Below, piece after piece: positions 3,001 through 57,999 of a stretch of DNA of 64,000 nucleotides. Position numbers and translations under genes: made by a program. The notes beneath the pieces are model-generated. The model made no database searches. It was not told where the DNA came from and saw only the letters and a list, made by a program, of their open reading frames with translations. The stretch is taken from the NCBI GenBank assembly GCA_000004985.1, contig GG738845.1; one strand, 5' to 3'. The first letter of the stretch is position 1. Every line of letters begins with the position of its first letter. This stretch comes from Naegleria gruberi (Eukaryota).

Positions 3001-6000
3001 AACCTAAATAGATTGTTAAATTAGTGTTCCACACACAGATAGGTTGTTCGCCCAATTTCAATAGAGAAGTAGAATCAAATAAACTTTCACATTTTCCATT
3101 AAACATCTCAAAGGATTCATCCCTTGCAATAATGGTTTGAACTAGTGGCGCTAGAGTAATGGATTGATAATTCATACTGAAAACGTAATTTTCACATTCC
3201 TTTCCAATATATCCATTCTTACAAGTACATGTATGTGGACCTGAACAATTACCATTTCCAGAACAAACACCTGGATCAATTTCAACCTTTTGATAACACT
3301 TGAAATATTCGCATTTAGAACCAGCATATCCATTTGAACATTGGCAGACGTCCTTATCTACACATTGACCTTTCAAATTTGAACAAACACTTGCATTATT
3401 ACTATCGATTCCATAACAAGAAGTCAAGTTACAATTATTCCCAAACCATCCAGACTGACATCTACAATCATTAATGCCTACACATGTTCCCTTTCCATTA
3501 CAAACAGCAGTCTTATCAGAGGTTATTCCATAGCAATATGGATAATCACATCTCAAACCTCCGTATCCATCAGTACAGATACAATTTCCAGGACCATTAC
3601 AAGTACCATTATTGGAACATGCCTTTTTTCCATAACAATCGAATAATTCACATTGATTTCCATAGTAACCTTCAATACACGTGCAGTTATTGGGAATTCC
3701 ACAAACTCCATTACCACTACAGACACTTCTATTATTACTCATTATACCATAACAATATGTGATATTGCAATTACTTCCAGTCCAGGAATTTGCTGTACAA
3801 ACACAAGAGTTTGGAAGATCACAATATCCTTTTCCTGCACATACACCAGTTGAGTTTGCTTTAACTCCAAAACAAATTGGGATACATTCAGTTCTTTCTT
3901 GATTGAAATCATATCCATCCTCACAATAGGGCGTCAGTGATCTTATTGAATTATCTACTATATAATAAATCTTATTAGTTTCAAAGTCAGCTGTCAATTT
4001 TACAATTGAAGTACTAGCAATGGAATATCGTTCACCATTCTTTGGATATCTCCAAATATTATTTTCAGTGCTTGATATATAAACTATTGTATCACCGTTT
4101 GGCATAATTGCTAAATCCTTTGTCGAAGACTCTGTTTTATAGACAGTCTCAACATAATTATCACTTCTGAGAGTTCTTATGAGATTGTTGCCATTGTCTA
4201 TATAGTAAATTTGATCAGTCCCATTTGCAAAGGCAGCACCAACACAATAAAACATGTATGTTTCATTAAGCGGTTGTACTATTGGTAGATCTGGACCTTT
4301 TACAGTATATTGAGTACCAATTAATGAACTGGCTCTTCCTTTGTAAATTGTTTCTACAGTAGAATAGGCCCAAAAACTATGGATAAGCCTGTCATCAGAT
4401 GAAACTTTCAAATACTCAAGGGTATAATCAATATGTGTATGACGAGATGGTACATCTTCACCATATCCTATAAGTGTTCTTCTTCTTCCATCTGTGAGAT
4501 TGTGAAATGAAATTCCTTCGTTTTCCATAACAAGCAAATTACCATCTGGTAATAGAGCCAGATCCATTGGATAAATCATCTTTGCTTCTGTTGAGAGTAA
4601 GCCAGGAATTGGCTTCTTTCCATACAAATCAGAGTTTCCAGCAACAATGGTTATCTGATTATTCTCAAATTTCTTAACGAATCCATTAAAGTTATTTTCA
4701 GTTATATAAATAGCATCATTAATGACGATTGCCTTATTAGGGCAAGATAAACCACTTATTGGCAAAGTTGTGGTTGCACCTCCAATCACAGTTTGTTGAA
4801 TAGAATTTGCTTGACAATTTGCAACATAAATGGTATCATTGGCATGCACATATAAACCAGCTTTTGATGAAATTCCGCTCAAAACCGTTACCAAAGTGTT
4901 CGAAACTAGGTGCCTTAACCTTCCACCTTCAATAAACACGATACTTCCATTCGAAAGTACTCCAATAGCTGATGGCTCATTGATAGAACTCAAAGCTGGG
5001 ACAAATTCACCACTATATTCATTTTGACCATTACCAGCGATTGTGATTATTGTGCCATTAGTCAAAATTTTTCTAATTCTGTAATTCATACTGTCTGCTA
5101 TATAAATTTCATTATTTGAGGATAATGCAATTCCTTTCGAATAAATTGATGCCTCAGTAGCCAAAATACCATCTCCATTATTTCCTGAAACATAGTTTCC
5201 TGCAATTGTGTAATATCTTTGTTCACTCCAAACAAACTTTCGAATAACTTGGTTCATGGTATCAGAAACTAAGAAATCACCATTAGGATAAAGTGCAAAC
5301 GAAGGCGTTGAATAAATGGCATCACCAGCAACAATTTCTAAAGTTCCATTCTTGTGAACTTTGTAAATGTATCTACTATAGTGAAAATATAAGAGATCTC
5401 CATAAGCAGCAATTCGTTTAGGATAATCGAAGGAATATGTGCCGAATTTACAATCTGAAAGTTTAGATCCTTCTGAAACAATCTTACTTGAGTAAGGAGA
5501 GGATAATAAGTAAACATTTCCATCGGTTGCTATCTTTCTAATAGATTTTGAATCAGAGAAAAAAAGTTCTCTTGTTTTTGGATTATACACAACATCGAGT
5601 GGTGAATCTAAATTGGCTTTGCTAGGTTTCACACCATCTCCATAATAGGATGTACTTCCATCAGGAGCACCAACAACTTTAGAATAATTACCTTTCGAAA
5701 GTGAAACTTTTACAATTGCATTATTGGACGAATCTGCAATGTATAGCTCATCATTTTGGTTGATTGTTGCATAGTATGGATTTTTCAAGGAAAGAGAGCT
5801 ATTTTCATTGCCTGCAATTGTTGTGATAATACTAGTGTTCGAAATCAGACGAATCTTATTATTCCCCGCATCACAAATAACTAATTCATTCTTATAATTC
5901 ATGAAAACACACATTGGTGCAGTGAGTAAGGCATTAATCGCCAAACCTCCATCACCAATAAATCCAGAAGTCCCATTTCCTGCCATAGTAACGACACTTC

Positions 6001-18950: not shown

Positions 18951-20120
18951 ATGCAAGCTCAAGTCAATTTTAATCAAATCAAGTCATCAATCTTTGTTCC
19001 TTTGGATAAGAAGAAATCTGATCAACATTGTTCTCTCCTTTTCAGCAATCTAATTGGTACTGCTTTACAATTCAGAGACAACAAGTACACATACTGTGGA
19101 TCATATGATCTTTCACAGTGGTTGGTTCTCTGCTTTAATACTATGGTCAAACAAGATGAGAAGTTATTTGCAGATATTGTTATCCCATTGGTAGCATATA
19201 TTTCGATTGTTGACGATGCATGTGATGAGAAGATTACAGACATCTCTATTGAAGAGATGAAATCACATTGCATGATATTTAGAGGTGAATCTGTACAAGC
19301 AACAAACCCAGCTCACAAGATGGGAAAACTCGTCTATAATTTGATCAAAGACAGTAGATTCGATGGAATTAGAGGAAAGATTTTAGAATTCTTGACCGTT
19401 GGAACCAATCTCATAGAGAAGGCAAAGAATGAATGCGAAAATAATGGACTTGTCTCTGAAGAAACCTTGCTTGCCTTTTTGAAAGAAAGAAGAGTCGACT
19501 CAATGTCCTCTCTTTTCTTTACTATTAATAATTTCTTTAATGACATTCCAGAGATCGATACATGCGATCACGTCATTGAATATAACCACTTGGCATGTGA
19601 CATTATCAGTTTGTTCAATGATGTTGCCTCAATCGCTAAAGATGCCAAGAAGGTTGTTAACAATTATATCATTTTGAATAAGGGCTTGAAAGAGGGCATG
19701 TCATACAGCCAACTTAAACAACTCCCAGTTGAAGCCTTTGATTCATCCCTCAATGAAGTATTGGAATTAATCAAAGAGAAATTGCAACAAATGGAAACAA
19801 TCAAATCCTCCAACCCAGACAACTCCAAACAATTTGAATCCATCGATGAAGTGATGAAAGGATATTGTACTTGGTGCATCATTTCAAAGAGATTCCAACA
19901 TTCTAACCACCTCCTTCCTGAATACCATTCCAAAAAATCAGTACTCAAGGCAATGATTGAAACTGTGTTAATGCCATTCCTCAAACCTTGGTCTGATAAT
20001 GATATGCTCACCTATCTTGATGATATTGAAAATTCCATGAAGAAATCCTCCTTTTCAAGCATATTGGACTCATTTGCCTACTCTATCGGAAAATTTTGCT
20101 CTTTTTCAATCACTAATTAA
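18951..20120 (+). CDS. Class I terpene synthase, microbial-type (trichodiene-synthase-like fold), 389 aa, intronless.
   Basis: ATG at 18951. Aspartate-rich motif IVDDACDE (DDxxD) at about aa 86-93. NSE/DTE-type second metal-binding motif FNDVASIAKD (N-D-x-x-S-x-x-x-D) about 135 aa downstream, the spacing expected for class I terpene cyclases. Size (~45 kDa) and alpha-helical composition are also consistent. Confidence 0.8.
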   Translation: MQAQVNFNQIKSSIFVPLDKKKSDQHCSLLFSNLIGTALQFRDNKYTYCGSYDLSQWLVLCFNTMVKQDEKLFADIVIPLVAYISIVDDACDEKITDISIEEMKSHCMIFRGESVQATNPAHKMGKLVYNLIKDSRFDGIRGKILEFLTVGTNLIEKAKNECENNGLVSEETLLAFLKERRVDSMSSLFFTINNFFNDIPEIDTCDHVIEYNHLACDIISLFNDVASIAKDAKKVVNNYIILNKGLKEGMSYSQLKQLPVEAFDSSLNEVLELIKEKLQQMETIKSSNPDNSKQFESIDEVMKGYCTWCIISKRFQHSNHLLPEYHSKKSVLKAMIETVLMPFLKPWSDNDMLTYLDDIENSMKKSSFSSILDSFAYSIGKFCSFSITN

Positions 20121-21512: not shown

Positions 21513-22544
21513 TTATTCCATTGATTTCAGCATTCTTCGTTTTTTTGTCATATAAGTGTCATAGTTCATTACATATTTTTCCATATCCTCATCTTCATCA
21601 TAACCATCACTACTATTTTCTGAATAGCTTTCCTCCTCTGATGGAATAAAATCTTCTTCATCCTTAAAGAATTTTGGATCCACCTCATAATCCTCCAAAT
21701 CTTCAGAAGAAGAAGAAGAATCTGACTCGAGTGCTCTCTTCAAATTTTTGATTCCATGAGTAATTCTAGGTTTCTGCTGCTCAAAAAAGTCTTTCTTCTT
21801 GTAATTAAAAGCAACTCTTCCTAATTTCTTAACAAGAGCTTCAGTCTTTGCGTCCATGGTGGTTCTTGGTGAAATTCTCTTGTAGGAGAAGACTTTTGGA
21901 ATTTCCATTTGCTCATGAATGATAGCAGCAGCCTTTTCAGAAGTACTACGATTTGCCTTGTTGGCTTCAGAAGTTAAATCATTAAGAGTCACAGTATTAT
22001 TTACATTGTTCTGTGGTTGTTTGTTGTTTGAGGCTTCATTATTCTTCTTCTTGGTTTGTTTGTTATTATTATTAGTGTTCGGAGTGTTGTTATTGGCAGA
22101 CTTTGTTGGTTGACTCTTCTTATTTGAATCATCAGGCTTCTTATTGTTATTGGCTGCATTGTTTGAATTATTTTGAGGTTTGTTGTTATTTGTTGGTTCA
22201 TTATTCTTTTTCTTGGTTTGTTTGTTATTAGTATTCGGAGTGTTGTTATTGGCAGACTTATTTGAATTATTATTTGGCTTGTTGACTACTTCCTTATTAC
22301 TATTTGAATTGTCCAATTTTACATTGTTACTTGTTGAATTATTTGCATTCTTGTTGTTATTATTAGTAGGTTGAGCCTTCTTTTGCTTTTTGTTGTTGTT
22401 ATTGTTATTATTGTTTGGCTTTTGCTTGTTATTATTATTCGGAGTATTATTCTGTTTGTTGTTATTATTGTTACTATTTGGAGTGTTGTTCACTTCATTT
22501 GTGTTGGCTTTCTCTTGTGTGTTTTGCTTTTTCTTCTTGGCCAT
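21513..22544 (-). CDS. Asn/Lys-rich low-complexity protein (343 aa) with acidic, Ser-rich C-terminus.
   Basis: ORF track. Mixed basic N/K-rich and acidic S/E/D-rich composition, nucleolar-like. Contains a 2-copy 162-bp tandem repeat (see repeat feature). Confidence 0.45.
   Translation of the reverse strand: MAKKKKQNTQEKANTNEVNNTPNSNNNNNKQNNTPNNNNKQKPNNNNNNNNKKQKKAQPTNNNNKNANNSTSNNVKLDNSNSNKEVVNKPNNNSNKSANNNTPNTNNKQTKKKNNEPTNNNKPQNNSNNAANNNKKPDDSNKKSQPTKSANNNTPNTNNNNKQTKKKNNEASNNKQPQNNVNNTVTLNDLTSEANKANRSTSEKAAAIIHEQMEIPKVFSYKRISPRTTMDAKTEALVKKLGRVAFNYKKKDFFEQQKPRITHGIKNLKRALESDSSSSSEDLEDYEVDPKFFKDEEDFIPSEEESYSENSSDGYDEDEDMEKYVMNYDTYMTKKRRMLKSME
22030..22275. repeat. Two tandem ~162-bp repeat units inside the N-rich CDS, encoding a repeated 54-aa unit (KSANNNTPNTNNKQTKKKNNE...).
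   Basis: Near-identical DNA segments TTCATTATTCTTCTTCTTGGTTTGTTTGTTATTATTATTAGTGTTCGGAGTGTTGTTATTGGCAGACTT at ~22035 and ~22197. Corresponding protein repeats KSANNNTPNTNNKQTKKKNNEPTNN / KSANNNTPNTNNNNKQTKKKNNEASNN. Confidence 0.6.
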
Positions 22545-22825: not shown

Positions 22826-24712
22826 TTATCTCATACCCACTTGCTTTTGTGCTTCCAATTCCTTCTTCTTTTCCTCAATCTCTTGTTTGGATCGTTTGTA
22901 CTCGGTGGTTCTCTTATATCTGACAAAGATGTCCATCAAGTCTCTTTCCACATGCTCTACCAATTTGTAAAAGATAGAATCTGGAATCTTCTTCTTTTCC
23001 AAATTGTCTAAAATCTCCTTTTCCCATATGGAACGGTTTGGTAAATTGAGTTCTAAATTGGATCCATACTGGACGTATTTTGAAATAATGGTAGTGGCGA
23101 ATTTCTTCTTCTTTTCCTTTGATTTAATTTTGAGAAAGGCATGAGCATCTTCCCAAAACAAGATACCTTCTGGAACGAAGGATTCAGTGGCGAATTCCTT
23201 AAAGAAGGCTCTTGCCTTCTTGTCTCTCAAAATTTCTCTCACCTCAATAGAATTACCAGCTTCAGTACTATCATTCCATTGATATTTGGAGGTTTGGAAT
23301 GACAAGATGATTGGAATTAAGCAAGAGACAACATTGTCAAACAAACAACCAAACAAGATAATCCAACCAGCTGGGAAATAATGTTCATATATCAAGTTAT
23401 AACTTCCCCAAATACCAGCAACGAAGAATAGTAAAACATCAATAATCCAAAAAAGCATGACAACGAAAACTTCCCTTCTGATGAACCAATTTTCCTTAAC
23501 CTTTCTCCAAATAATAATTAACATGACAAAACTGGTTACATAATAAATAAGTGTAAGCACTAAAACAGCATAGACTTTGGTTCCTACGAAACAACCTTGA
23601 AGGAATGGTTTTGTTGAATAATATCCAATATCTGTGAGGATTAAAATTACAAAGACAGCAAAGTGAATCATGTAAACAACAGCAATGATGGTAGACAGGG
23701 CTGCTTTGGAGCTCAGCTTGGCAAAGAGGTCGAGTTTCTTTGTTACTGTCTTACCTGATTGTGGTGGGCTATCTGTTGGTCTGTCATGGTCCAAGTTCGG
23801 GATTTCAATAGCTTCAATATCAAGATCATCATCATCCAATTCCGCAACATTTCTTGCTTCATCATTGTCTGTTGTAGTAGTTTCATCCTCAGTCATTATA
23901 CTATTGCTGTTATTAGCTGATTGAGAAGTTATAACAGGTAGTGTTGGAGTGTTCGTTTCAGAAACAGGTTGGTTTGCATTAATATTTGCATCTAATAATT
24001 CAGTAGTAGAGAGAGGTGATGTTGGCTGTGATGATGTTTGTACAGCACTAGAAGGAGAAGGTTTTGTAAATATTGGTTGAGGAGGACTTTGCCTTTTCAT
24101 GACCAAAGATTGTCTTCTTTCATTATAGGTGGTAATGAGCTGTTTCTTCTTACTTATTAAATACACGAAAATTAATCGCCAACATCTATTTTGGTTAATT
24201 AGTGTTAATATGGATGTGACTCTCGGTGAGAAAACTTACCTCAAAATGGCAGGCAAAAACAATCCTGGATAAGCCAACAAAAGCAGGAAGGTAAAGAAGA
24301 AACAAGGAAATTCATATCTTCCAAAAGCAAATCTCAAAGTTACCATGAGACTGACAAAATAGGTGGCAACAATGCTTACAATCATTAAAAAGATGTCTCT
24401 TGCTTTTACAGGTTGATAATTTCTTCTCCAAATTGCAAGAGAGAGAAGGAAAACAAACCACAGTGTAAATGCTCCAAGTAATGCCCATGAAACTGGCGAC
24501 ACATAACTCAAGTCCAATATTTCATGCCGAGTTGTAACAATTCCAGAATATACAGAGGAGAGAGATGATTTTAGGTAGGGAGTTGATGATGAATTGACAG
24601 CTAAACTTGCTAGTTGTTGCAATACTAGATCATAGTAACCATTGTTGTCCGAGTTAATATATGGGGATGCAGGAAAATATTGCAGAATGGTCGAATTCGA
24701 GTTATTGGACAT
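22826..24712 (-). CDS. Seven-transmembrane protein with C-terminal RGS (regulator of G-protein signalling) domain; 2 exons; ~610 aa.
   Basis: Exon 1 is 24712-~24240: the ATG at 24712, N-glycosylation sites, and TM1-3. The donor is ...CCATTTTGAG|GTAAGT. The 54-nt intron ends ...CCAAAATAG at ~24186. Exon 2 is ~24185-22826: a Ser/Thr/Pro-rich ~170-aa loop, TM4-7 (LSTIIAVVYMIHFAVFVILIL, VYAVLVLTLIYYVTSFVMLIII, VFVVMLFWIIDVLLFFVAGIW, GWIILFGCLFDNVVSCLIPIIL), then the RGS box ARAFFKEFATESFVPEGILFWEDAHAFLKIKSKEKK...ISKYVQ. The ORF track splits this into 24236-24712 and 22826-24166 (GTG start). Confidence 0.7.
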
Positions 24713-29475: not shown

Positions 29476-31667
29476 ATGTCCCTGCTGGATGAATTCTTTG
29501 CCGATGCTGCTGATGATACGACAACTACAACGTCGACACCTCCACCACCATCATCATCATTATTATCACTCTCTGTGCCACCACATGGTGTGCCTCCTCC
29601 GCAATCATTGAATAATACAAACCAACAACAACAACAAGTAGTAATCTACTTTTAAATCATCACCATCATCATGTATTTATTAATCCATTTCTACCTTCGA
29701 CTGTTGCTGGTATTGCTTCCCAATCTATTACAAATTTAACGCCCATTAATCTAAATCCACAGACCCTCTTTCCTTCTTCTTTGAATTCGTCAATGGTTAT
29801 GGATGACGATGGATCTACTACCACTGATGAAGCAAGTTCTTCCGGAGCACCATCACTCTCTTCTATAAACTTGTCGAGCCATGCCCAAAGATTCCACCAA
29901 GATCATGACACACTTTCTACAACTTCATCCATGAGTACTTTTTCTTCGGGATCGTATAGTCATTTCGTCCCAGATATTAATAATCAATCAACCAGTAATG
30001 GAGTAGCTACTATTGTGCAACAACAACCACAGCAACCTGTCATCAAGCCAATTATTAATACTCCAACCACAATTTCACTTTTACTTCGTGATGAAAATTT
30101 CAACATTCATATGGAGAAAATCAAGGAATTTGTAAAATTGACCAACAGCGGAAAAGTCATCAAAACTGGAGAATCGTTTCAAACCGATGAAGAATATCCT
30201 TATATTTTAGCCAGTAATTCATACACCTTGTCAATTGACCAGGATATTGACCAACTGTTTATTCAGTTAAAATTATTATATTCGGAAAAGTTTAAAGATT
30301 TGGAGAGCAATATTATTGATCCAATGACTTTTGTAAATACAGTATTGCGAATTGGTAACGGTATTCCACTTGTGGCTCCTAGAGGTTCACAAAATTTCAC
30401 AGATATTGATCTGAGTGATATTTTACCTCCTTCAACAATTATGATTCTTAAAGTAACAGCAGCCAATGATGGTACCTTTAAAGTAAATCTATCTGAAGAT
30501 AAGTGGAAGAAAATTGAACAAATTTGTAGAGATGTCATACTTTTGGATGAACATAAGGAACATATTTTACAATATCTATCTATGAGAATGTCCTATGTTG
30601 CTCCTAATTTGAGCTTATTGGTTGGAACAAGAATTGCTGCCCAATTAATAGGTGCAGCAGGTGGAATTTTATTACTTTCTCAAACTTCAGCAGATGTAAT
30701 TCAATGTCTGGGAAGAGAAAAGAAGAAACTTGAAGGATTTTCTACTAAGACTTACATGGGTATGCTCCCAAAGAGGAAACAAACTTCGACTGACTCAAAG
30801 GATGGAAACTATCTCCTCTCCTATACGGCCAATGATTTTTCTCATATGAGATATACTGGATTTGTTGGATTGTGTGATTTGGTGATGGAACATACTCCAC
30901 CAAGAGAAAAACTGAGAAAGAAGGTTGCTCGTCTTGTTGCCACTAAATGTGCTCTTGCTGCCCGTATTGACAGTTGTAATTCGGCCAAGAATGGCTCAGA
31001 AGGATTACATCTTCGTGAGGATATTCAAATGGCCATCAAGAAAATGTTAGAACCACCAAAAAGAAAGGAGGACAAACCACTCCCAGCCCCAGATTCTATT
31101 AAAAAGTCTGGATCTCGAGGTGGTTCAAAATCAGCAGCTGAAAAGCAATTGGCCAGAACTTCAGAATTGAGAAAGAAATATGCCAGATTACCATTTGGAG
31201 AATCAGGTTCAGATGATTCCTATACTGGAGATGGATCAGGAACCATGTTGGGCGATGAAGGCAAGAAGGGATTGGGCCGATCTCTAAGTGTACACAATGC
31301 AATTCTTGCTTCTGGCAAACGATACGAAAACAAGCACAAAAAGAAGGAGAAAAAACATACATCTGGCTCATCAACTGGGGTCAATACTGCACTTTCATCT
31401 TCCTCGGCTTACTTTGATGGTATCAGCACAATTTCAAACACCTCAATTTTCAAGAGTGGTACTGCTACTCAAATCATCAGAACTGGTACTGCCACTTCCA
31501 TGGCAATTAGCAATAACAATGAAATGGAAATTCTTAACCCTAATCTTATTGCAGAAGATCAGAAACGAAAGACAGAACAAAAGAAGGGATACTTTTCTAT
31601 GGATACTAAATTTAAGAAACCATCAGATGTTATGGCACCACCTTCTTCCACTGAAAAGAAAAAATAA
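29476..31667 (+). CDS. PRPF31: U4/U6 snRNP protein PRP31 (Nop domain), 2 exons, ~688 aa.
   Basis: Exon 1 is 29476-~29637. It begins with the conserved PRP31 N-terminus MSLLDEFFADAADD... (human MSLADELLADLEEA) and ends with the donor CAACAA|GTAGTA. The ~125-nt intron ends ...AATCCACAG at ~29762. Exon 2 runs ~29763-31667; the track ORF 29781-31667 starts at a TTG. Nop-domain core: EHILQYLSMRMSYVAPNLSLLVGTRIAAQLIGAAGGILLLSQTSADVIQCLGREKKKLEGFSTKT...GFVGLCDLV...PPREKLRKKVARLVATKCALAARIDS. Confidence 0.8.
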
Positions 31668-51170: not shown

Positions 51171-53093
51171 TCAATTCTTCGTCTTTGAAAGTAAGAGAAC
51201 TTGGAGGGTGAGGTCAGAATCAATAAACTCTTTCAAACGATTGTTTGGAGAGAGGTGATTGGAAATTTCAGACCATCTTGTTGTTTCAGTGCTGTAGTGA
51301 AGATATTCTGAGAGAAGCTTGATGGATGGATAGGAGGATTTGTTGAGAAGTGCCTCATTAAAATAGGTTGGGCCAACCAAAACAACCTGATCATGGTTTT
51401 CAAGCTCTCTTTGTAAATGTTCATTGAAGAGAGTGGAATTGTCAATACCTTCTAATCCTAAAACTGTAATATTTGGATGATAGTATGAAAGTAAGTAACC
51501 AGGAGGACTGTAAGTATTGTGATAAATTACTCTGGTATTGCTGCTGCTGCTGGATTGTGATTTGTTGATTAATTGAGGGATGGAAATCAAGCTCTTAACA
51601 ACACCTGCTTGGTGAACAAACAGATAGAATAATGAAACCAAAATTCCATGTAAAATGCACAGGGACAAGAAGGTTTTGGATTGATATTTCCATTTTGATT
51701 CGTTTTGGTGATTAGCACTTGCATTGTCATTCTTTTTACCTTGACTCTGAGTTTCAAAATCATATCCCAACATGATAATCCATGGACAATAGGAAGGAAG
51801 AATAAATCTTGGTTCTTGGTGAGGAGCTATACTCAAAATAGCAATACCAGCCAACCAAGAGAAGAATGAAAGCCAAATAATATATGGTACTTGTGTAATT
51901 GGAACAGCATTAGAATTCCAATTATTGGTACCAAAGTTTCTGGTTATCAACTTGAAAATCCACATTATCATTTTGAAAATAATTACAAAGAAGGTACATC
52001 CAAATAAAAGAGGCATATTTACAAAGAAGTGAAGTCCTCTGAAATGGAGTGTGTGAAGTGCCAAATTTTCCACATATGAATTGTAAATGATATTATTGAT
52101 TGGTGTAATGTAAATTGGAAAATTGAAAAAACTTGGGAGGGATTTCGAGTTCCAATCATCAATCAATTCCAACTTGTAGAAAATGTATCTAAAAGAGTTT
52201 TGATAGTTGCTTGAAAGTACATTGCTATAAAATAAAGTATCCAATCCAATCATTAAACTAAAGAAGAAGAGTGTTGAAAATCCAAATACCAACAAATTCT
52301 TAAATAATTGTGACAATCCAGAAGAAAATGAAGGTGATTCAAAAAGTGGAAGTGTTATAACCATAAGAATAACAGTAACTGAATAAAAGGCATAAATAAA
52401 GTTGCTGAAAAATCCCAATGTAAAAATAAATCCATAAATTATCAAATAGTAATTATTTCTTCCACTTTCTCTCCTTTTAATTTCCAACATGAATAGCAAA
52501 GCCAATAGGGCACTTGAAATAGTATTCGAAAATGTTCTAGTATGAAACACTAGAGAAGTGAAAAAGAAGGAATAAATCAAGAATAGGAAATTAGACTTGG
52601 ATAAGAGAGTGCTCTTGGTTGAATTTTCAAAATTATGAGCCTGTCTACATTCTCTAGATTTTAAAATATTCCAAACAATTCTATCTGTAAAGAAGGAAAA
52701 AATAAATAATAATATTTTCGGAGCATAGAGTAAAAAGTAAGGAGAGAGATTTAACAAACTTGCTCTAATATTTGTATCAAATTCTTGTCCATATTGCATT
52801 AATAATTTTATAATATAAATTGGAAGGCCAGTCATTGTGAGAGGAATCAGAGTATTTCTCTGTGGAAAATCAAAAGTAAATTCCCACCTCAGGAAACTTT
52901 CATCCAACACTGTTCCGTTCAATGTTTTTACAAGATGATGATTACTATTTGGATGAATATCTTTCAAAATAATAGATGATGAAAATGATGGTGATTGAAA
53001 GAATTCATCTGGAAATATATATCCCATCGGAAAGATGAAGAATAATCGCAAAATCAAGCTAATCCATAACAGTAAAGAATATGATTTTTGCAT
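51171..53093 (-). CDS. Multi-pass membrane Dol-P-Man-dependent mannosyltransferase of the GT22 family (PIG-B/PIG-Z/ALG9/ALG12 type), 640 aa.
   Basis: About 10 predicted TM helices. Signature motif SIAPHQEPRFILP (HxE(E/P)RF, diagnostic of GT22 GPI/ALG mannosyltransferases) in a luminal loop. Long C-terminal extension. Confidence 0.65.
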   Translation of the reverse strand: MQKSYSLLLWISLILRLFFIFPMGYIFPDEFFQSPSFSSSIILKDIHPNSNHHLVKTLNGTVLDESFLRWEFTFDFPQRNTLIPLTMTGLPIYIIKLLMQYGQEFDTNIRASLLNLSPYFLLYAPKILLFIFSFFTDRIVWNILKSRECRQAHNFENSTKSTLLSKSNFLFLIYSFFFTSLVFHTRTFSNTISSALLALLFMLEIKRRESGRNNYYLIIYGFIFTLGFFSNFIYAFYSVTVILMVITLPLFESPSFSSGLSQLFKNLLVFGFSTLFFFSLMIGLDTLFYSNVLSSNYQNSFRYIFYKLELIDDWNSKSLPSFFNFPIYITPINNIIYNSYVENLALHTLHFRGLHFFVNMPLLFGCTFFVIIFKMIMWIFKLITRNFGTNNWNSNAVPITQVPYIIWLSFFSWLAGIAILSIAPHQEPRFILPSYCPWIIMLGYDFETQSQGKKNDNASANHQNESKWKYQSKTFLSLCILHGILVSLFYLFVHQAGVVKSLISIPQLINKSQSSSSSNTRVIYHNTYSPPGYLLSYYHPNITVLGLEGIDNSTLFNEHLQRELENHDQVVLVGPTYFNEALLNKSSYPSIKLLSEYLHYSTETTRWSEISNHLSPNNRLKEFIDSDLTLQVLLLSKTKN

Positions 53094-53189: not shown

Positions 53190-54749
53190 TTACTTTTCCA
53201 TGATAACATCTTGACCACTCAACATGAAAGGAACAAGTGGCTTTGGAATTTTAACACCTAATTTACCGTTTTCATCATAAAATTGATTATTCTCTAAAAT
53301 AGTAATGATGGCTCTAGGAACAGCCATTGCAGTACCATTTAACGTATGTGGATAAACAGTAGTATTGTTAGATCTGTATCTGATATTCAATTTACGAGAT
53401 TGGTAATCAGTACAGTTGGAAGCAGAAGAAACTTCACCATAACCTAAACGGCTTGGAATAAATGCTTCCATATCAATCTTTCTGAAAGCAGGATTTCCCA
53501 AATCATTACAAGGCATGTCAAGAATTTGGAAATGGAATCCCAATTCACTAAATATTTCTTCTTGAATGGAAACAATTTCATCTAAGAGAGCTTCACTTTG
53601 TTCAGGTTCACAATAGACAAACATTTCAACTTTGGTAAATTGATGTACACGATAGAGTCCTCGATCCTTGCTTCCTGCAGCTCCTGCTTCAGTTCTGAAG
53701 CAATGAGAAAGACCAGCATACTTCAATGGTCCCTTGAAATTAGGCATGAATTCATTACAATGGAGAGCAGCCAAACCTATTTCACTTGTACCAATCAAGC
53801 ATAAAGAATCATTACAAGTTTCACCATTCTTAGTGGTGGTTGGTTCTTGATTTGAATTTTCAATTCTATAGATTTGAGAGTGTTCACCTCTTGGTTGGAA
53901 ACCACATCCTTCAACAATTGATTGCTTCATCAATTCTGGTGGCATGATGATTTTAAAGCCACGTTTTAACAATTTGGAGATGGCAAAATTTTGCAAGGCA
54001 ACTTCCAATAAGACACCTTCATTCTTCAAGAAGAAAAATTTGGAACCGGAACATTCATTGGCAGGTTCAAACAAGTCCAACTTTTCACAAATTTCATAAT
54101 GTGATAATTTTGGAATTGTTTCCTTCTTTTCTCCAACATACTTGACAAGATTTGGTTGATTGGAATTTTCTTTAGAGAACTTCATGACACCTTCTTCGGT
54201 AAAGTTTGGTAATTTAACTGTCTTTTCACACAATTCTTGATACACTTCGTTTTTAATCTTTTCTAAATTTTGAATTTTAGTTTTAAATTCCTTTCCGATA
54301 ACTTTCCAACTATCTGCTTTTTTGTTTTCCAAATCTTCTTTGATTAAATTTTTAATTTCAATAGGAACTTGTTCCGATGTTCTTTTACCTGCCAAGTATT
54401 CAGCAATTTCCTTTCTAAGATATTGCACTTGTTCATATTCTTGATCAATTTGAATATATTGTTCATAATTTTTCAACACTTGGTCTAAATCAATATTTAA
54501 TTCTCTCAATTTAATATTTTCCTTCATTTCATCTTGTTTTTCAATCATCTTTTCAAAATTATAATTGTATGGTAAATTCTTGGCCTTGTGTTCTTGTTGT
54601 TGGCTTGCTGCTACATTATTGGTATGGAATGTTCTAGCAGTGTTATTATTACTAGTCATACGAATTAACCATGATCTACAACTAGCCCGTGCTGATGATG
54701 CGCACGAGCGTAAAAGTGATGAAGGAAGGCTTTTATGATGATGAAACAT
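53190..54749 (-). CDS. Seryl-tRNA synthetase, probably mitochondrial (519 aa).
   Basis: ATG at 54749. Arg/Ser-rich presequence. Class II motif 2 FRTEAGAAGSKDRGLYRVHQFTKVEMF and motif 3 GTAMAVPRAIITILENNQ. N-terminal coiled-coil arm. Confidence 0.85.
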   Translation of the reverse strand: MFHHHKSLPSSLLRSCASSARASCRSWLIRMTSNNNTARTFHTNNVAASQQQEHKAKNLPYNYNFEKMIEKQDEMKENIKLRELNIDLDQVLKNYEQYIQIDQEYEQVQYLRKEIAEYLAGKRTSEQVPIEIKNLIKEDLENKKADSWKVIGKEFKTKIQNLEKIKNEVYQELCEKTVKLPNFTEEGVMKFSKENSNQPNLVKYVGEKKETIPKLSHYEICEKLDLFEPANECSGSKFFFLKNEGVLLEVALQNFAISKLLKRGFKIIMPPELMKQSIVEGCGFQPRGEHSQIYRIENSNQEPTTTKNGETCNDSLCLIGTSEIGLAALHCNEFMPNFKGPLKYAGLSHCFRTEAGAAGSKDRGLYRVHQFTKVEMFVYCEPEQSEALLDEIVSIQEEIFSELGFHFQILDMPCNDLGNPAFRKIDMEAFIPSRLGYGEVSSASNCTDYQSRKLNIRYRSNNTTVYPHTLNGTAMAVPRAIITILENNQFYDENGKLGVKIPKPLVPFMLSGQDVIMEK

Positions 54750-54854: not shown

Positions 54855-56291
54855 TTATTTGACCTCTTTGACCTTTAAACCAAAATTCAAGTGAATATTA
54901 ACTTTGTAAATTCTATGTAAATCGGCCAAGGCATAGGTGTGAATATATTTTAAGGATTGTTGAATGATTTTGAGTTGACTGTTTGTTCTCGCAATTAAGT
55001 CAGCATCAATGATTAAATGTTCACCAGATTTTGACAATTCCAATTTGGTAATATTAATTACAGTTTGATATGGAATTTCCTTATTACATCTTCTATAGAG
55101 CTTCTCTCTAATAATTTCCTTAATAGTGTCCATGGTTGTGATTCCAGGAGTAACTTGATCCTTATCGAAAAACCATTTTCTGTCACGGGTCTTTTCACAC
55201 AAGTATTTGATAACACTTTCCATACCATACCCAGTCTTGGCACTGATAATAAAGGCCTGATTGAAAACCCCTGAACGAACCAATTCAAATCTATATTCTT
55301 CACATCTATCCATTTCAACCATATCAGATTTGTTAATGAGGGCACACAAGTGGAATTGCTTATCTTTCTTTGCATAATTGGCAATTAAATCCAAAATATG
55401 ATCAATTTCTCTCAATGGTTTAGTAACATCAATTAAAAGTAAAACAACATCTGCCAAATCCAATGTTAAGCATGATTCCTCTTGTAATCCTTCAATGGTT
55501 TCTCTGGCAGTTTTATCTGTTTTCAATCTAGAATATTCCATATTCAATATACCTGGTGTATCAAAAAATACAATTTGATTCTCCTCATTATTTAACACAG
55601 CCAATGATCTAGAACGTGTTGTTTGAGTTTTTGGTGAAACTGCCGAAACCTTTCTTGAAACAAATCGATTCAAAATTGTCGATTTACCAGCATTAGGATT
55701 ACCAACAATTGTTACCTTCACTACTTTAGAATTCTTTGGTGAATGTTCAGCTGTACGTTTAAAGATTTTATGTAAATTCTCCAAAGTGAGTTCAATCTTT
55801 TCCTCCTTAGTTAACATATCCTTGAATGAAACTCTTTCCTGAACAGTGTTTTTAGCCTTCTTGTTATTTGTATCTATTTTCGACAGCTCATTGGAAGTTT
55901 GTTGTTCCTCTTGTTCAATAGGCTCATCAACAATATTCAATAATTCCTCACGTTTTTTCAAATCTTTATAATCATTCGGAAATTGTTTTTCAATGAATTG
56001 GTCCACTTTTTCACTAGTAAATAATTGATTAATTTTACTTTTAAATTGATCCTTTGGAATTTGTTGTTTTACTTGATTAATCTTTTGTTCAATTTTCTTA
56101 CGTTTAGATAAAATTGAATAATTGGCAGTGTTGTTATTAGTTGTTAATATTCCTCCTCCGATAATCCTTGATAATAAATTATGACCAGTATTATTATTAA
56201 ATATTGTTCTTCCTCCTATCAAAAAGCCACCTCCTCGTGATGTTGTTGTTGTTGTGGCTGTTGTTGAATAATTTATCAAATGTTTTCTCAT
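54855..56291 (-). CDS. Era-like GTPase with C-terminal KH domain (ERAL1-type, probably mitochondrial), 478 aa.
   Basis: G1 VTIVGNPNAGKSTILNRF, G3 FFDTPGI, G4 NKSD. C-terminal KH-like segment. Lies 105 bp upstream of SerRS on the same strand. Confidence 0.8.
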   Translation of the reverse strand: MRKHLINYSTTATTTTTSRGGGFLIGGRTIFNNNTGHNLLSRIIGGGILTTNNNTANYSILSKRKKIEQKINQVKQQIPKDQFKSKINQLFTSEKVDQFIEKQFPNDYKDLKKREELLNIVDEPIEQEEQQTSNELSKIDTNNKKAKNTVQERVSFKDMLTKEEKIELTLENLHKIFKRTAEHSPKNSKVVKVTIVGNPNAGKSTILNRFVSRKVSAVSPKTQTTRSRSLAVLNNEENQIVFFDTPGILNMEYSRLKTDKTARETIEGLQEESCLTLDLADVVLLLIDVTKPLREIDHILDLIANYAKKDKQFHLCALINKSDMVEMDRCEEYRFELVRSGVFNQAFIISAKTGYGMESVIKYLCEKTRDRKWFFDKDQVTPGITTMDTIKEIIREKLYRRCNKEIPYQTVINITKLELSKSGEHLIIDADLIARTNSQLKIIQQSLKYIHTYALADLHRIYKVNIHLNFGLKVKEVK

Positions 56292-56556
56292 TGTTTTTGC
56301 TTTTTTTCAAAAAAATTAAAATCAAAATTTTTGATGATTTAAAAATGTAAATTCAATCAAAAATTAAAGAACACAGGAAAATATTTTGAAACATGTTAAG
56401 AAAGAGTACTAATTAGAGGATTTTTTATGTAATTTGTAAATGTCCCCTCTCGCCTTGGTATTGTCCTAATGTGGCTTTTACGATTGTGATGTGAGAATCA
56501 GTTTCGAATACAGCAATATAAGAAGGATAAAAAACTATCAAAACATCTCTCAGAAA

Positions 56557-57999
56557 ATGCGTCCATTATTACTTGGCAAACACTCTACCCATTCTAATAG
56601 TGTAGGAACGTTTCAACAACAGGATAATCATCACCAATATATATATCCCAATAATAATAATGGCCTTTCGAATAATAATCAACTAAAATCCAATAGTCCT
56701 AATTCGTCTCATGATAACATGACGCCTCTCCTTTTAAAAAATAGAATGACAGCTCCTAAAGCAATTGATAAAGAAATTAGTAAATGGTCTTGTCAAGATG
56801 TTGGTATTTGGTTAGATTGGATGAAACTATCACACTTGAAACCGATATTTATTCAAAATCAGATAAGTGGAGATGAATTATTGGAATTAACGGATGCTGA
56901 AATAATTAATGATTTGAAAGTTAGGGACGAATATGAACGAAAGTTAATTAAAGAATTAATTGATAATAGGGAAGTTTGGATGAAACGAGGAAGTAAAAAA
57001 CTTTCAAATGATAGTTTGGATTCTTTGGAAGAATATCCGAAACCAATTTCACCCATTAACATGAGTCCACAAGCAGTGAAATATCAAGTTTTGAATCAAA
57101 AACCTATATTTCCCAATACAAAAAGTTCATTAGAATTGGATGAATTTTCAGATTGTGATGATTTGACAAGTGTTGGAGGAATATTTCTTGACAGATCAAC
57201 TATTGCTTCTCAAAAATTGGAAGTATTATTAGAAACTCTCTATAAGGATGTAGGAAATGTAAAATTCAAAGTTTACAGAGGTAGTGATATTTATCTGATA
57301 ACTCAAAAACGTTCTCAACTCTCATTCACCTCACTCAAATTGGAAATTATTGAGAGATATCAATGTGTCAAACCAACAATACTTTACAAGACGAGAGACG
57401 GTGATTTTATTATAATTAATAGGGACGAGGATTTGGCAAGAGTTATTTCTTCCTATCATCAGAATGGAGGCGATGTTTCTCAGCCAATCAAGTTACAAAT
57501 TGAAACTAATGATTTGCCAATTGGATTGATTACTGCAACATCAACAGGTACGAATAGCAACACAAATTCCAATGCCACAAATCAGATGAGCAATAATCAT
57601 CATAGTTTGCATAGTCCTCGGGAGTGGACTTATTCATCAGATCAATCTCAAAGCTCAACCAACAGCCTACCTCCAAATAATCAACTAGCTCAAAAATTAA
57701 TTGAATTGGAATTGGAAAATATTGAGAAAAATAATTCAATAAGAGAACTGGAAATCAGATTACATAATCAACAGGTTGAACATGAAAAGCAAACAACCTA
57801 TTCAAAATCTTTGCAGGACGATATTTCTACTCTCAAAATGCAACTCTATTCCTATAAGAATGGTACAGTGTTTAACCCATCGGGCTCTTTGAGCAAACAG
57901 GAAGAAATTAGTGAATATATCAAATTATGCAAGTCCTTACAATCATCACTCGCAACTGCTCAGAATAAGCTATTCGAATTACTTGGAAATCAATTGTAA
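56557..57999 (+). CDS. SAM-domain plus PB1-domain protein with C-terminal coiled coil (~480 aa).
   Basis: Track ORF starts at 56491 (GTG); first ATG at 56557 (MRPLLLGK). SAM: ISKWSCQDVGIWLDWMKLSHLKPIFIQNQISGDELLELTDAEIINDLKV. PB1-like: KFKVYRGSDIYLITQKRSQLSFTSLKLEIIERYQ...ILYKTRDGDFIIINRDEDLARV. Coiled coil: ELELENIEKNNSIRELEIRLHNQQVEHEKQ. Confidence 0.6.
   Translation: MRPLLLGKHSTHSNSVGTFQQQDNHHQYIYPNNNNGLSNNNQLKSNSPNSSHDNMTPLLLKNRMTAPKAIDKEISKWSCQDVGIWLDWMKLSHLKPIFIQNQISGDELLELTDAEIINDLKVRDEYERKLIKELIDNREVWMKRGSKKLSNDSLDSLEEYPKPISPINMSPQAVKYQVLNQKPIFPNTKSSLELDEFSDCDDLTSVGGIFLDRSTIASQKLEVLLETLYKDVGNVKFKVYRGSDIYLITQKRSQLSFTSLKLEIIERYQCVKPTILYKTRDGDFIIINRDEDLARVISSYHQNGGDVSQPIKLQIETNDLPIGLITATSTGTNSNTNSNATNQMSNNHHSLHSPREWTYSSDQSQSSTNSLPPNNQLAQKLIELELENIEKNNSIRELEIRLHNQQVEHEKQTTYSKSLQDDISTLKMQLYSYKNGTVFNPSGSLSKQEEISEYIKLCKSLQSSLATAQNKLFELLGNQL

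Follow-up and report, generated by a model that had tools for sequence, protein, structure and literature searches.

Gene structure of a split seven-helix RGS gene

The window analyzed here is a 64,000-nucleotide (nt) stretch of Naegleria gruberi contig GG738845.1, which is AT-rich (33% GC). On its minus strand, between positions 22826 and 24712, lie two open reading frames (ORFs) which, joined across a short intron, encode a 610-aa protein with seven predicted transmembrane (TM) helices followed by a C-terminal RGS (G-protein signaling regulator) box (Table 1). We consider it likely that the gene encodes an annotated membrane receptor-GAP (GTPase-activating protein), in which a seven-helix bundle resembling class C G-protein-coupled receptors (GPCRs), with a short N-terminus, is fused to a cytoplasmic, canonical RGS domain. 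A first-pass annotation of this DNA, made from sequence alone, had proposed that the two ORFs be joined across a 54-nt GTAAGT...AAAATAG intron, and this proposal was borne out by the reading frame, by existing annotation and by orthologues.

Exon 1, carrying the N-terminal ectodomain, TM1, TM2 and most of TM3, ends in ...CCT GCC ATT TTG AG and is followed directly by GTAAGT. At its 3' border the intron reads ...ACTAATTAACCAAAATAG, after which exon 2 begins with A TGT TGG CGA..., and an ACTAAT inside the intron resembles a branch point. Left unspliced, the frame of exon 1 terminates at the TAA within GTAAGT; excision of 24239..24186 fuses TTG AG to A TGT in phase 2 and yields an 1833-nt coding sequence of 610 aa. 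An in-frame stop lies 14 codons 5' of the ATG, and the position of the starting methionine is common to the orthologues. The spliced protein matched XP_002683603.1 (EFC50859.1; UniProt D2UX22_NAEGR), labeled "RGS-domain-containing protein" in the databases, with 100% identity over 100% of its length, so that the spliced model and the annotated protein are one and the same. The first-pass annotation had presented the fusion as revealed only by joining the ORFs, a claim of novelty that did not hold, as the spliced model was already in RefSeq and UniProt and the family of seven-TM (7TM) RGS proteins had been described (PMC9283941, PMC3971589).

Full-length orthologues were found in N. lovaniensis (52% identity), N. 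fowleri (50% identity at 100% coverage; XP_044569699.1/FDP41_000025, 623 aa) and Willaertia magna (43%), and the junction aligned without gaps in four species (...LP[AS]ILRCWRL[IFL]FVY...). The N. lovaniensis orthologue contains a single 153-nt intron (GTATGT...TATAG) at the same codon and phase as in N. gruberi, and intron-naive ORF calls of N. fowleri and of another relative also terminate at ...ILR. Translated similarity to N. lovaniensis (tblastx) ended at 24187 and resumed at 24237/8, coinciding with both intron borders. In Willaertia magna the junction peptide (...LPSILRCWRLFFVY...) is encoded within one exon, which directly validates the joined reading. The introns of that orthologue lie instead at codon 96 (phase 2) and codon 529 (phase 1; locus 3288-3485 and 4784-4846), positions wholly different from codon 158, phase 2, in Naegleria, which indicates that introns were gained or lost within the Vahlkampfiidae. 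The evidence for splicing is comparative, drawn from orthologues, annotation and cross-species coding similarity, and on these grounds we take the 54-nt intron to be real and the two ORFs to be one gene.

Membrane topology and class C affinity of the seven-helix domain

Hydropathy analysis resolved seven segments, at about residues 74-96, 105-127, 136-160, 318-341, 359-382, 393-416 and 431-455. An AlphaFold2 model built from 88 homologues (mean predicted local distance difference test score [pLDDT] 79.7, predicted template modeling score [pTM] 0.76) gave pLDDT values >90 for most of the RGS box and of the seven TM helices; a model from 6 sequences (pLDDT 47.6) was set aside. The seven helices expected of the joined product were recovered both as hydropathy peaks and as modeled helices. 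Lysines and arginines numbered 14 among 63 residues on the cytoplasmic flanks versus 3 among 54 outside, a bias that fits an N-out/C-in topology and therefore puts the RGS box on the cytoplasmic side, as the first-pass annotation had supposed; the conserved Cys137/Cys356 pair falls on the predicted outer side. Its further suggestion of a glycosylated N-terminus was supported as to the outside location and the presence of N-X-S/T sequons (N3, N6 and N40), while glycosylation itself is predicted only. A Pfam scan of the 73-aa N-terminus recognized no Venus-flytrap or other ectodomain; N-termini across the family have a median length of 42 aa.

Within the bundle, the first intracellular loop (ICL1) carries the motif RRNYQPVKAR, with R105 kept in 77 of 81 homologues, Cys137 lies at the top of TM3, and R158-x-x-R161 marks its cytoplasmic end. 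The long second intracellular loop (ICL2) noted in the first-pass annotation as Ser/Thr/Pro-rich was found as described, spanning about 157 aa, in which TM3 continues as a helical extension, residues 203-283 form a disordered, T/S/P/D-rich core, and a helix (301-315) precedes TM4; across 75 homologues the length of this loop ranged from 22 to 325 aa, with a median of 101. The second half of the bundle is marked by an invariant Cys356 in the second extracellular loop (ECL2), by KENWFIR and an acidic residue (389) at the border of the third intracellular loop and TM6, and by Pro449 in TM7.

From sequence profiles and the structural model, the 7TM domain is very likely of class C type. By fold, the AlphaFold2 model grouped with class C GPCRs. 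A Pfam scan of the 88 homologues, taken from an exhaustive profile search, found RGS in 79, and the sole recurring 7TM family was 7tm_3 (PF00003), matched in 11 of the 88 (best E=2.2e-10) and below threshold in relatives, as in P0116 (30.3 bits against a gathering cutoff of 33.5). Members with a short ICL2 fitted 7tm_3 collinearly over nearly the whole model (positions 12-243 of 251 in P0093 and 6-220 in P0111), and a family consensus from which the loop had been removed matched only 7tm_3 (E=0.0027), again collinearly, over positions 8-219 of 251. Alignment of the TM profile to CaSR, mGlu5 and GABA-B2 with hhalign gave P=6e-4 (the CaSR and GABA-B2 sequences were confirmed against PDB), versus P=0.56 for class A (rhodopsin and the beta2-adrenergic receptor) and 0.18-0.7 for reversed controls. 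A search of PDB sequences with the TM profile and P0010 returned no match at E<=10.

Landmarks of the two families were collinear: ICL1 RRNYQPVKAR corresponds to RNTPIVKATNR, RCWRL at the end of TM3 to KTWRV of GABA-B2, and KENWFIR to NDSKYIG before TM6, and the TM3 cysteine, ECL2 cysteine and TM7 proline are all present. Conservation at these positions was high (C137 in 77/79 homologues, C356 in 88/88, R158 in 71/83, R161 in 68/84, D/E389 in 85/87 and P449 in 83/86). By analogy with class C receptors, we infer that the basic residues at the end of TM3 and the acidic residue at the start of TM6 may form an ionic lock.

Word-indexed searches with the full protein, an orthologue profile and a TM-only profile each retrieved only 6 proteins, perhaps owing to low-complexity words crowding the candidate list. 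An exhaustive search with the full-length orthologue profile returned 951 cluster representatives at E<=1e-3, of which 237 reached <=1e-10 and 62 reached <=1e-30. Many of the matches covered both the TM and RGS parts, and the weaker ones included RGS-only proteins; because a full-length profile was used, the 951 matches are not a count of 7TM-RGS proteins. Named members include paralogues in N. gruberi (D2VUE7), N. lovaniensis and Willaertia. Transcripts of Pharyngomonas kirbyi (P0111), a deep-branching heterolobosean, and of the amoebozoan Cavostelium apophysatum (P0119) combined RGS with subthreshold 7tm_3 matches, so that, provided the amoebozoan record is not a contaminant, the class C-like 7TM-RGS family may reach outside Heterolobosea.

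RGS box and comparison with known receptor-RGS systems

The C-terminal RGS domain named in the first-pass annotation was confirmed by Pfam (PF00615; residues 474-589, E=7.9e-12, 46 bits against a cutoff of 23.9, model positions 3-116 of 117). Its closest PDB matches by sequence were RGS10, RGS3, RGS12 and RGS5, and the modeled box superposed on RGS4, RGS8 and RGS16 taken from G-alpha complexes at a root-mean-square deviation (rmsd) of 1.5-1.8 A. Key G-alpha-contact residues are retained: E497 is conserved in 82 of 84 homologues, and N538, within an E-L-N-L motif common to RGS10 and AtRGS1, in 78 of 83; we take these to be E87 and N128 in RGS4 numbering. In BLASTP, E497 pairs with E320 of AtRGS1, whose E320K mutant has been described as GAP-dead (PMC5951851). 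Beyond the box, a C-terminal helix (585-606) was predicted at pLDDT >90, and K597, K598, K599, E600, Q604, G608 and M609 are invariant in six orthologues; no known motif was recognized in the KKKE-x-EAQKQ-x-GMR tail.

The protein had been likened by the first-pass annotation to plant AtRGS1 (sequence verified by exact look-up as NP_189238.2/Q8H1F2), and this likeness holds for one part of the protein and not for the other. The two share an N-out 7TM domain with a cytoplasmic C-terminal RGS box, and a presumed logic of GAP control over self-activating G-alpha. BLASTP aligned the RGS boxes (29% identity over 78 aa, E=2e-7) and nothing in the TM region. Against AtRGS1-type TM regions, a 74-sequence TM profile gave P=0.061 (hhalign score 17.8, over a short segment; reversed control 0.27), and the AtRGS1 TM region itself carried no class C signal (hhalign P=0.43). 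In that short match, AtRGS1 residues ~150-214 aligned with profile columns 154-212, a loop Cys and ...ELRDLWKG... pairing with the ECL2 Cys and ...vRDtWgIK...; this match, not significant at P=0.061, is the only hint of deep relatedness between the TM domains. Membership in the plant RGS1 family was rejected because the TM-domain homology test failed. The loops of AtRGS1 are short, whereas ICL2 of the Naegleria protein reaches 157 aa. AtRGS1 has a Ser-rich C-terminal tail that serves in phosphorylation-driven endocytosis; in the Naegleria protein, by contrast, residues 590-610 form a K/E-rich helical tail containing a single Ser, and the S/T-rich region is ICL2.

Proteins of this kind are otherwise well represented, having been reported from many bikonts as well as from chytrids, filastereans and ichthyosporeans; RGS proteins number 229 in N. 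gruberi (PMC3971589). The nearest described set is that of N. fowleri, with 28 7TM-RGS proteins (Bosch, Jeck & Siderovski 2022, PMC9283941), which come from the same genus as our protein and likewise place a C-terminal RGS box after the 7TM domain. In three cases the RGS box was shown to be a selective GAP on Nf G-alpha 2/3/5/7, self-activating subunits included, and the 7TM parts were reported as lacking similarity to known receptors, with class C unmentioned (PMC9283941).

Among animal receptors, GPR158 is a class C receptor without a flytrap that recruits RGS7-G-beta5 in trans (PMC8611064; PDB 7ewp, 7she, 7shf). In mammalian GPR158 and GPR179 the RGS protein is a separate subunit, whereas in the Naegleria protein it is covalently fused; at a sequence identity to GPR158 of ~10-12%, the resemblance to GPR158-RGS7 is a design analogy, not orthology. 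A giant ICL2 and the fused C-terminal RGS box set the protein apart from the Pfam 7tm_3 receptors (mGlu, GABA-B, CaSR, TAS1R, GPR156 and GPRC5). It has no large ligand-binding (Venus-flytrap) ectodomain, as is also the case for GPR158, GPR156 and GPRC5D. The fungal GprK-like and MoRgs7 proteins, described as a GPCR class with RGS domains, share the domain order, a likeness known from descriptions only (PMC12842992, PMC6405168), and they were not among the named matches of the profile search.

No conserved neighbor genes of the 7TM-RGS gene were detected in comparisons with N. lovaniensis or Willaertia. Adjoining it on the minus strand (21513-22544) is a 343-aa ORF that is largely Asn-rich and of low complexity (NNNNN..., K/N/T-rich) and whose C-terminal part is acidic and Ser-rich. 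On the plus strand, a 389-aa ORF at 18951-20120 matched Pfam Terpene_syn_C_2 (E=1.9e-6, 28.2 bits against a cutoff of 23.7), and is by this match a predicted terpene-synthase-like gene (family 2, metal-binding domain) in an amoeboflagellate.

Table 1. Positions of the 7TM-RGS gene, its parts and other Pfam-assigned genes in the window
Feature	Position	Strand	Remarks
ORF 1	24236..24712	-	158 aa, ATG start
ORF 2	22826..24166	-	446 aa, nominal GTG start
Exon 1	24240..24712	-	Start codon 24712-24710; aa 1-157 and two bases of Arg158
Spliceosomal intron, 54 nt	24186..24239	-	GTAAGT...ACTAAT...AAAATAG; phase 2, codon Arg158
Exon 2	22826..24185	-	aa 158-610 and stop codon (22826-22828)
Predicted extracellular N-terminus, aa 1-73	24494..24712	-	Three sequons; low pLDDT
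TM1-ICL1-TM2-ECL1-TM3, aa 74-160 (ECL1, first extracellular loop)	24179..24493	-	Intron within span; hydropathy, AlphaFold2, hhalign to class C TM1-3
ICL2, aa 161-317	23708..24178	-	~157 aa between TM3 and TM4
TM4-TM7, aa 318-455	23294..23707	-	
RGS box, aa 474-589	22892..23239	-	Canonical R4-like nine-helix fold; contains E497, N538, R572
C-terminal helix, K/E-rich, aa 590-610	22826..22891	-	Ends ...KKKE-x-EAQKQ-x-GMR, then stop
PRP31-like protein (Nop + Prp31_C)	29781-31667	+	Pfam
Alg9-like mannosyltransferase	51171-53093	-	Pfam
Class II aminoacyl-tRNA synthetase core	53190-54749	-	Pfam
MMR_HSR1 GTPase	54855-56291	-	Pfam
SAM+PB1 protein	56491-57999	+	Pfam

Function, alternative readings and significance

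With the gene structure, 7TM topology signals, class C-like fold, RGS fold and key G-alpha-contact residues in place, receptor-GAP is the best-supported function, GAP activity itself being predicted. The protein would be membrane-embedded, its RGS box facing the cytoplasm, where the box would speed up GTP hydrolysis by at least one of the numerous G-alpha subunits of Naegleria. Because spontaneous nucleotide exchange occurs in some of these subunits (PMC9283941), the GAP step would set the signal level. A possible role for the 7TM domain is to modulate, upon a cue, the access or activity of the GAP or the location of the protein, and the long S/T-rich ICL2 might contribute to this control via phosphorylation or trafficking. 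Such a scheme would place the logic of AtRGS1, which is also that of mammalian GPR158-RGS7, in a single polypeptide that is structurally closer to GPR158.

Alternatively, the protein might be a conventional ligand-activated class C-type GPCR and exchange factor whose tethered RGS box only sharpens or terminates its own signal, which would make it a self-limiting GPCR and not purely a GAP receptor. The class C-like fold would suit such a role, as would the conserved TM3-ECL2 cysteine pair, the alignment of R158/R161 and the acidic residue 389 with the class C K-T-x-R and N-D/E-x-K motifs, and the presence of arrestin-like genes in Naegleria (PMC9283941). However, ICL2 is interrupted by a 157-aa, mostly disordered insertion whose length is very variable in the family, and some Naegleria G-alpha subunits self-activate and so need no exchange factor (PMC9283941), and we regard this role as unlikely. 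That the gene model is mis-joined, with one gene for a 3-TM protein and another, initiated at GTG, for a 4-TM RGS protein, is hardly credible. Each ORF is open by itself, but the junction peptide is colinear and gap-free in four species and lies in a single exon in Willaertia, the N. lovaniensis intron falls at the identical codon and phase though its length and sequence differ, the 7TM fold, predicted at pLDDT >90, requires both halves, and a GTG start is unexpected for a eukaryotic nuclear gene.

Several points weigh against a class C-like receptor-GAP. The N. gruberi protein itself had no Pfam 7tm_3 match, even at E<=10, and the AlphaFold model is a prediction. The four N. fowleri proteins that were assayed are far from this one in build, at 1215-2459+ aa with EGF, lectin or GPS (adhesion-type) ectodomains (PMC9283941), compared to 610 aa, a 73-aa N-terminus, a very long ICL2 and a class C-like 7TM domain here; because they are much larger and carry adhesion-type ectodomains, they are not orthologues of the 610-aa protein. 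In the RGS box, the equivalent of RGS4 N88, an Asn in R4 RGS proteins, is Gly498, and positions matching RGS4 D163/S164/R167 (alpha7-alpha8 contacts) vary across the family, so that G-alpha specificity or potency may differ. These same substitutions would fit an RGS box that is a non-catalytic module, binding G-alpha or other partners and anchoring them at the membrane, and some RGS domains have indeed lost GAP activity and act as scaffolds (PMC3971589). Yet E497 and N538, the positions best tied to GAP function, are kept in >93% of homologues, and the fold superposes on G-alpha-bound RGS4/8/16 at <2 A, which makes a pure scaffold very improbable and leaves a catalytic, membrane-tethered GAP as the preferred reading.

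Since an annotation of the gene exists and proteins of its kind have been described and assayed in the same genus, the finding is largely ordinary, and its value is confirmatory: raw ORFs read together with one canonical intron recover a real receptor-GAP gene. Only the class C-like rather than AtRGS1-like character of the receptor half in this single-chain 7TM-RGS fusion is modestly new, and it suggests, short of proof, an independent origin of the receptor-GAP design. Whether the orthologue group and its wider family (Naegleria, Willaertia, Pharyngomonas and the amoebozoan transcriptome) represent an independent fusion derived from a class C GPCR, a covalent counterpart of mammalian GPR158/179-RGS7 with a receptor part not homologous to AtRGS1, is to us an evenly balanced question. 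If they do, receptor-GAPs would have two or more separate origins, and the link between class C receptors and RGS-mediated shut-off would be ancient. The 7TM-RGS proteins invert the usual logic of GPCRs, in that the receptor switches G proteins off, and they are plentiful in Naegleria; the pathogenic relative, N. fowleri, is a target for drug discovery. Since its receptor half resembles GPR158 and GABA-B, the protein offers a structural template and targets for mutagenesis, and R158/R161, E389, C137/C356, E497 and N538 are candidate positions through which self-gating of the GAP domain may be probed.

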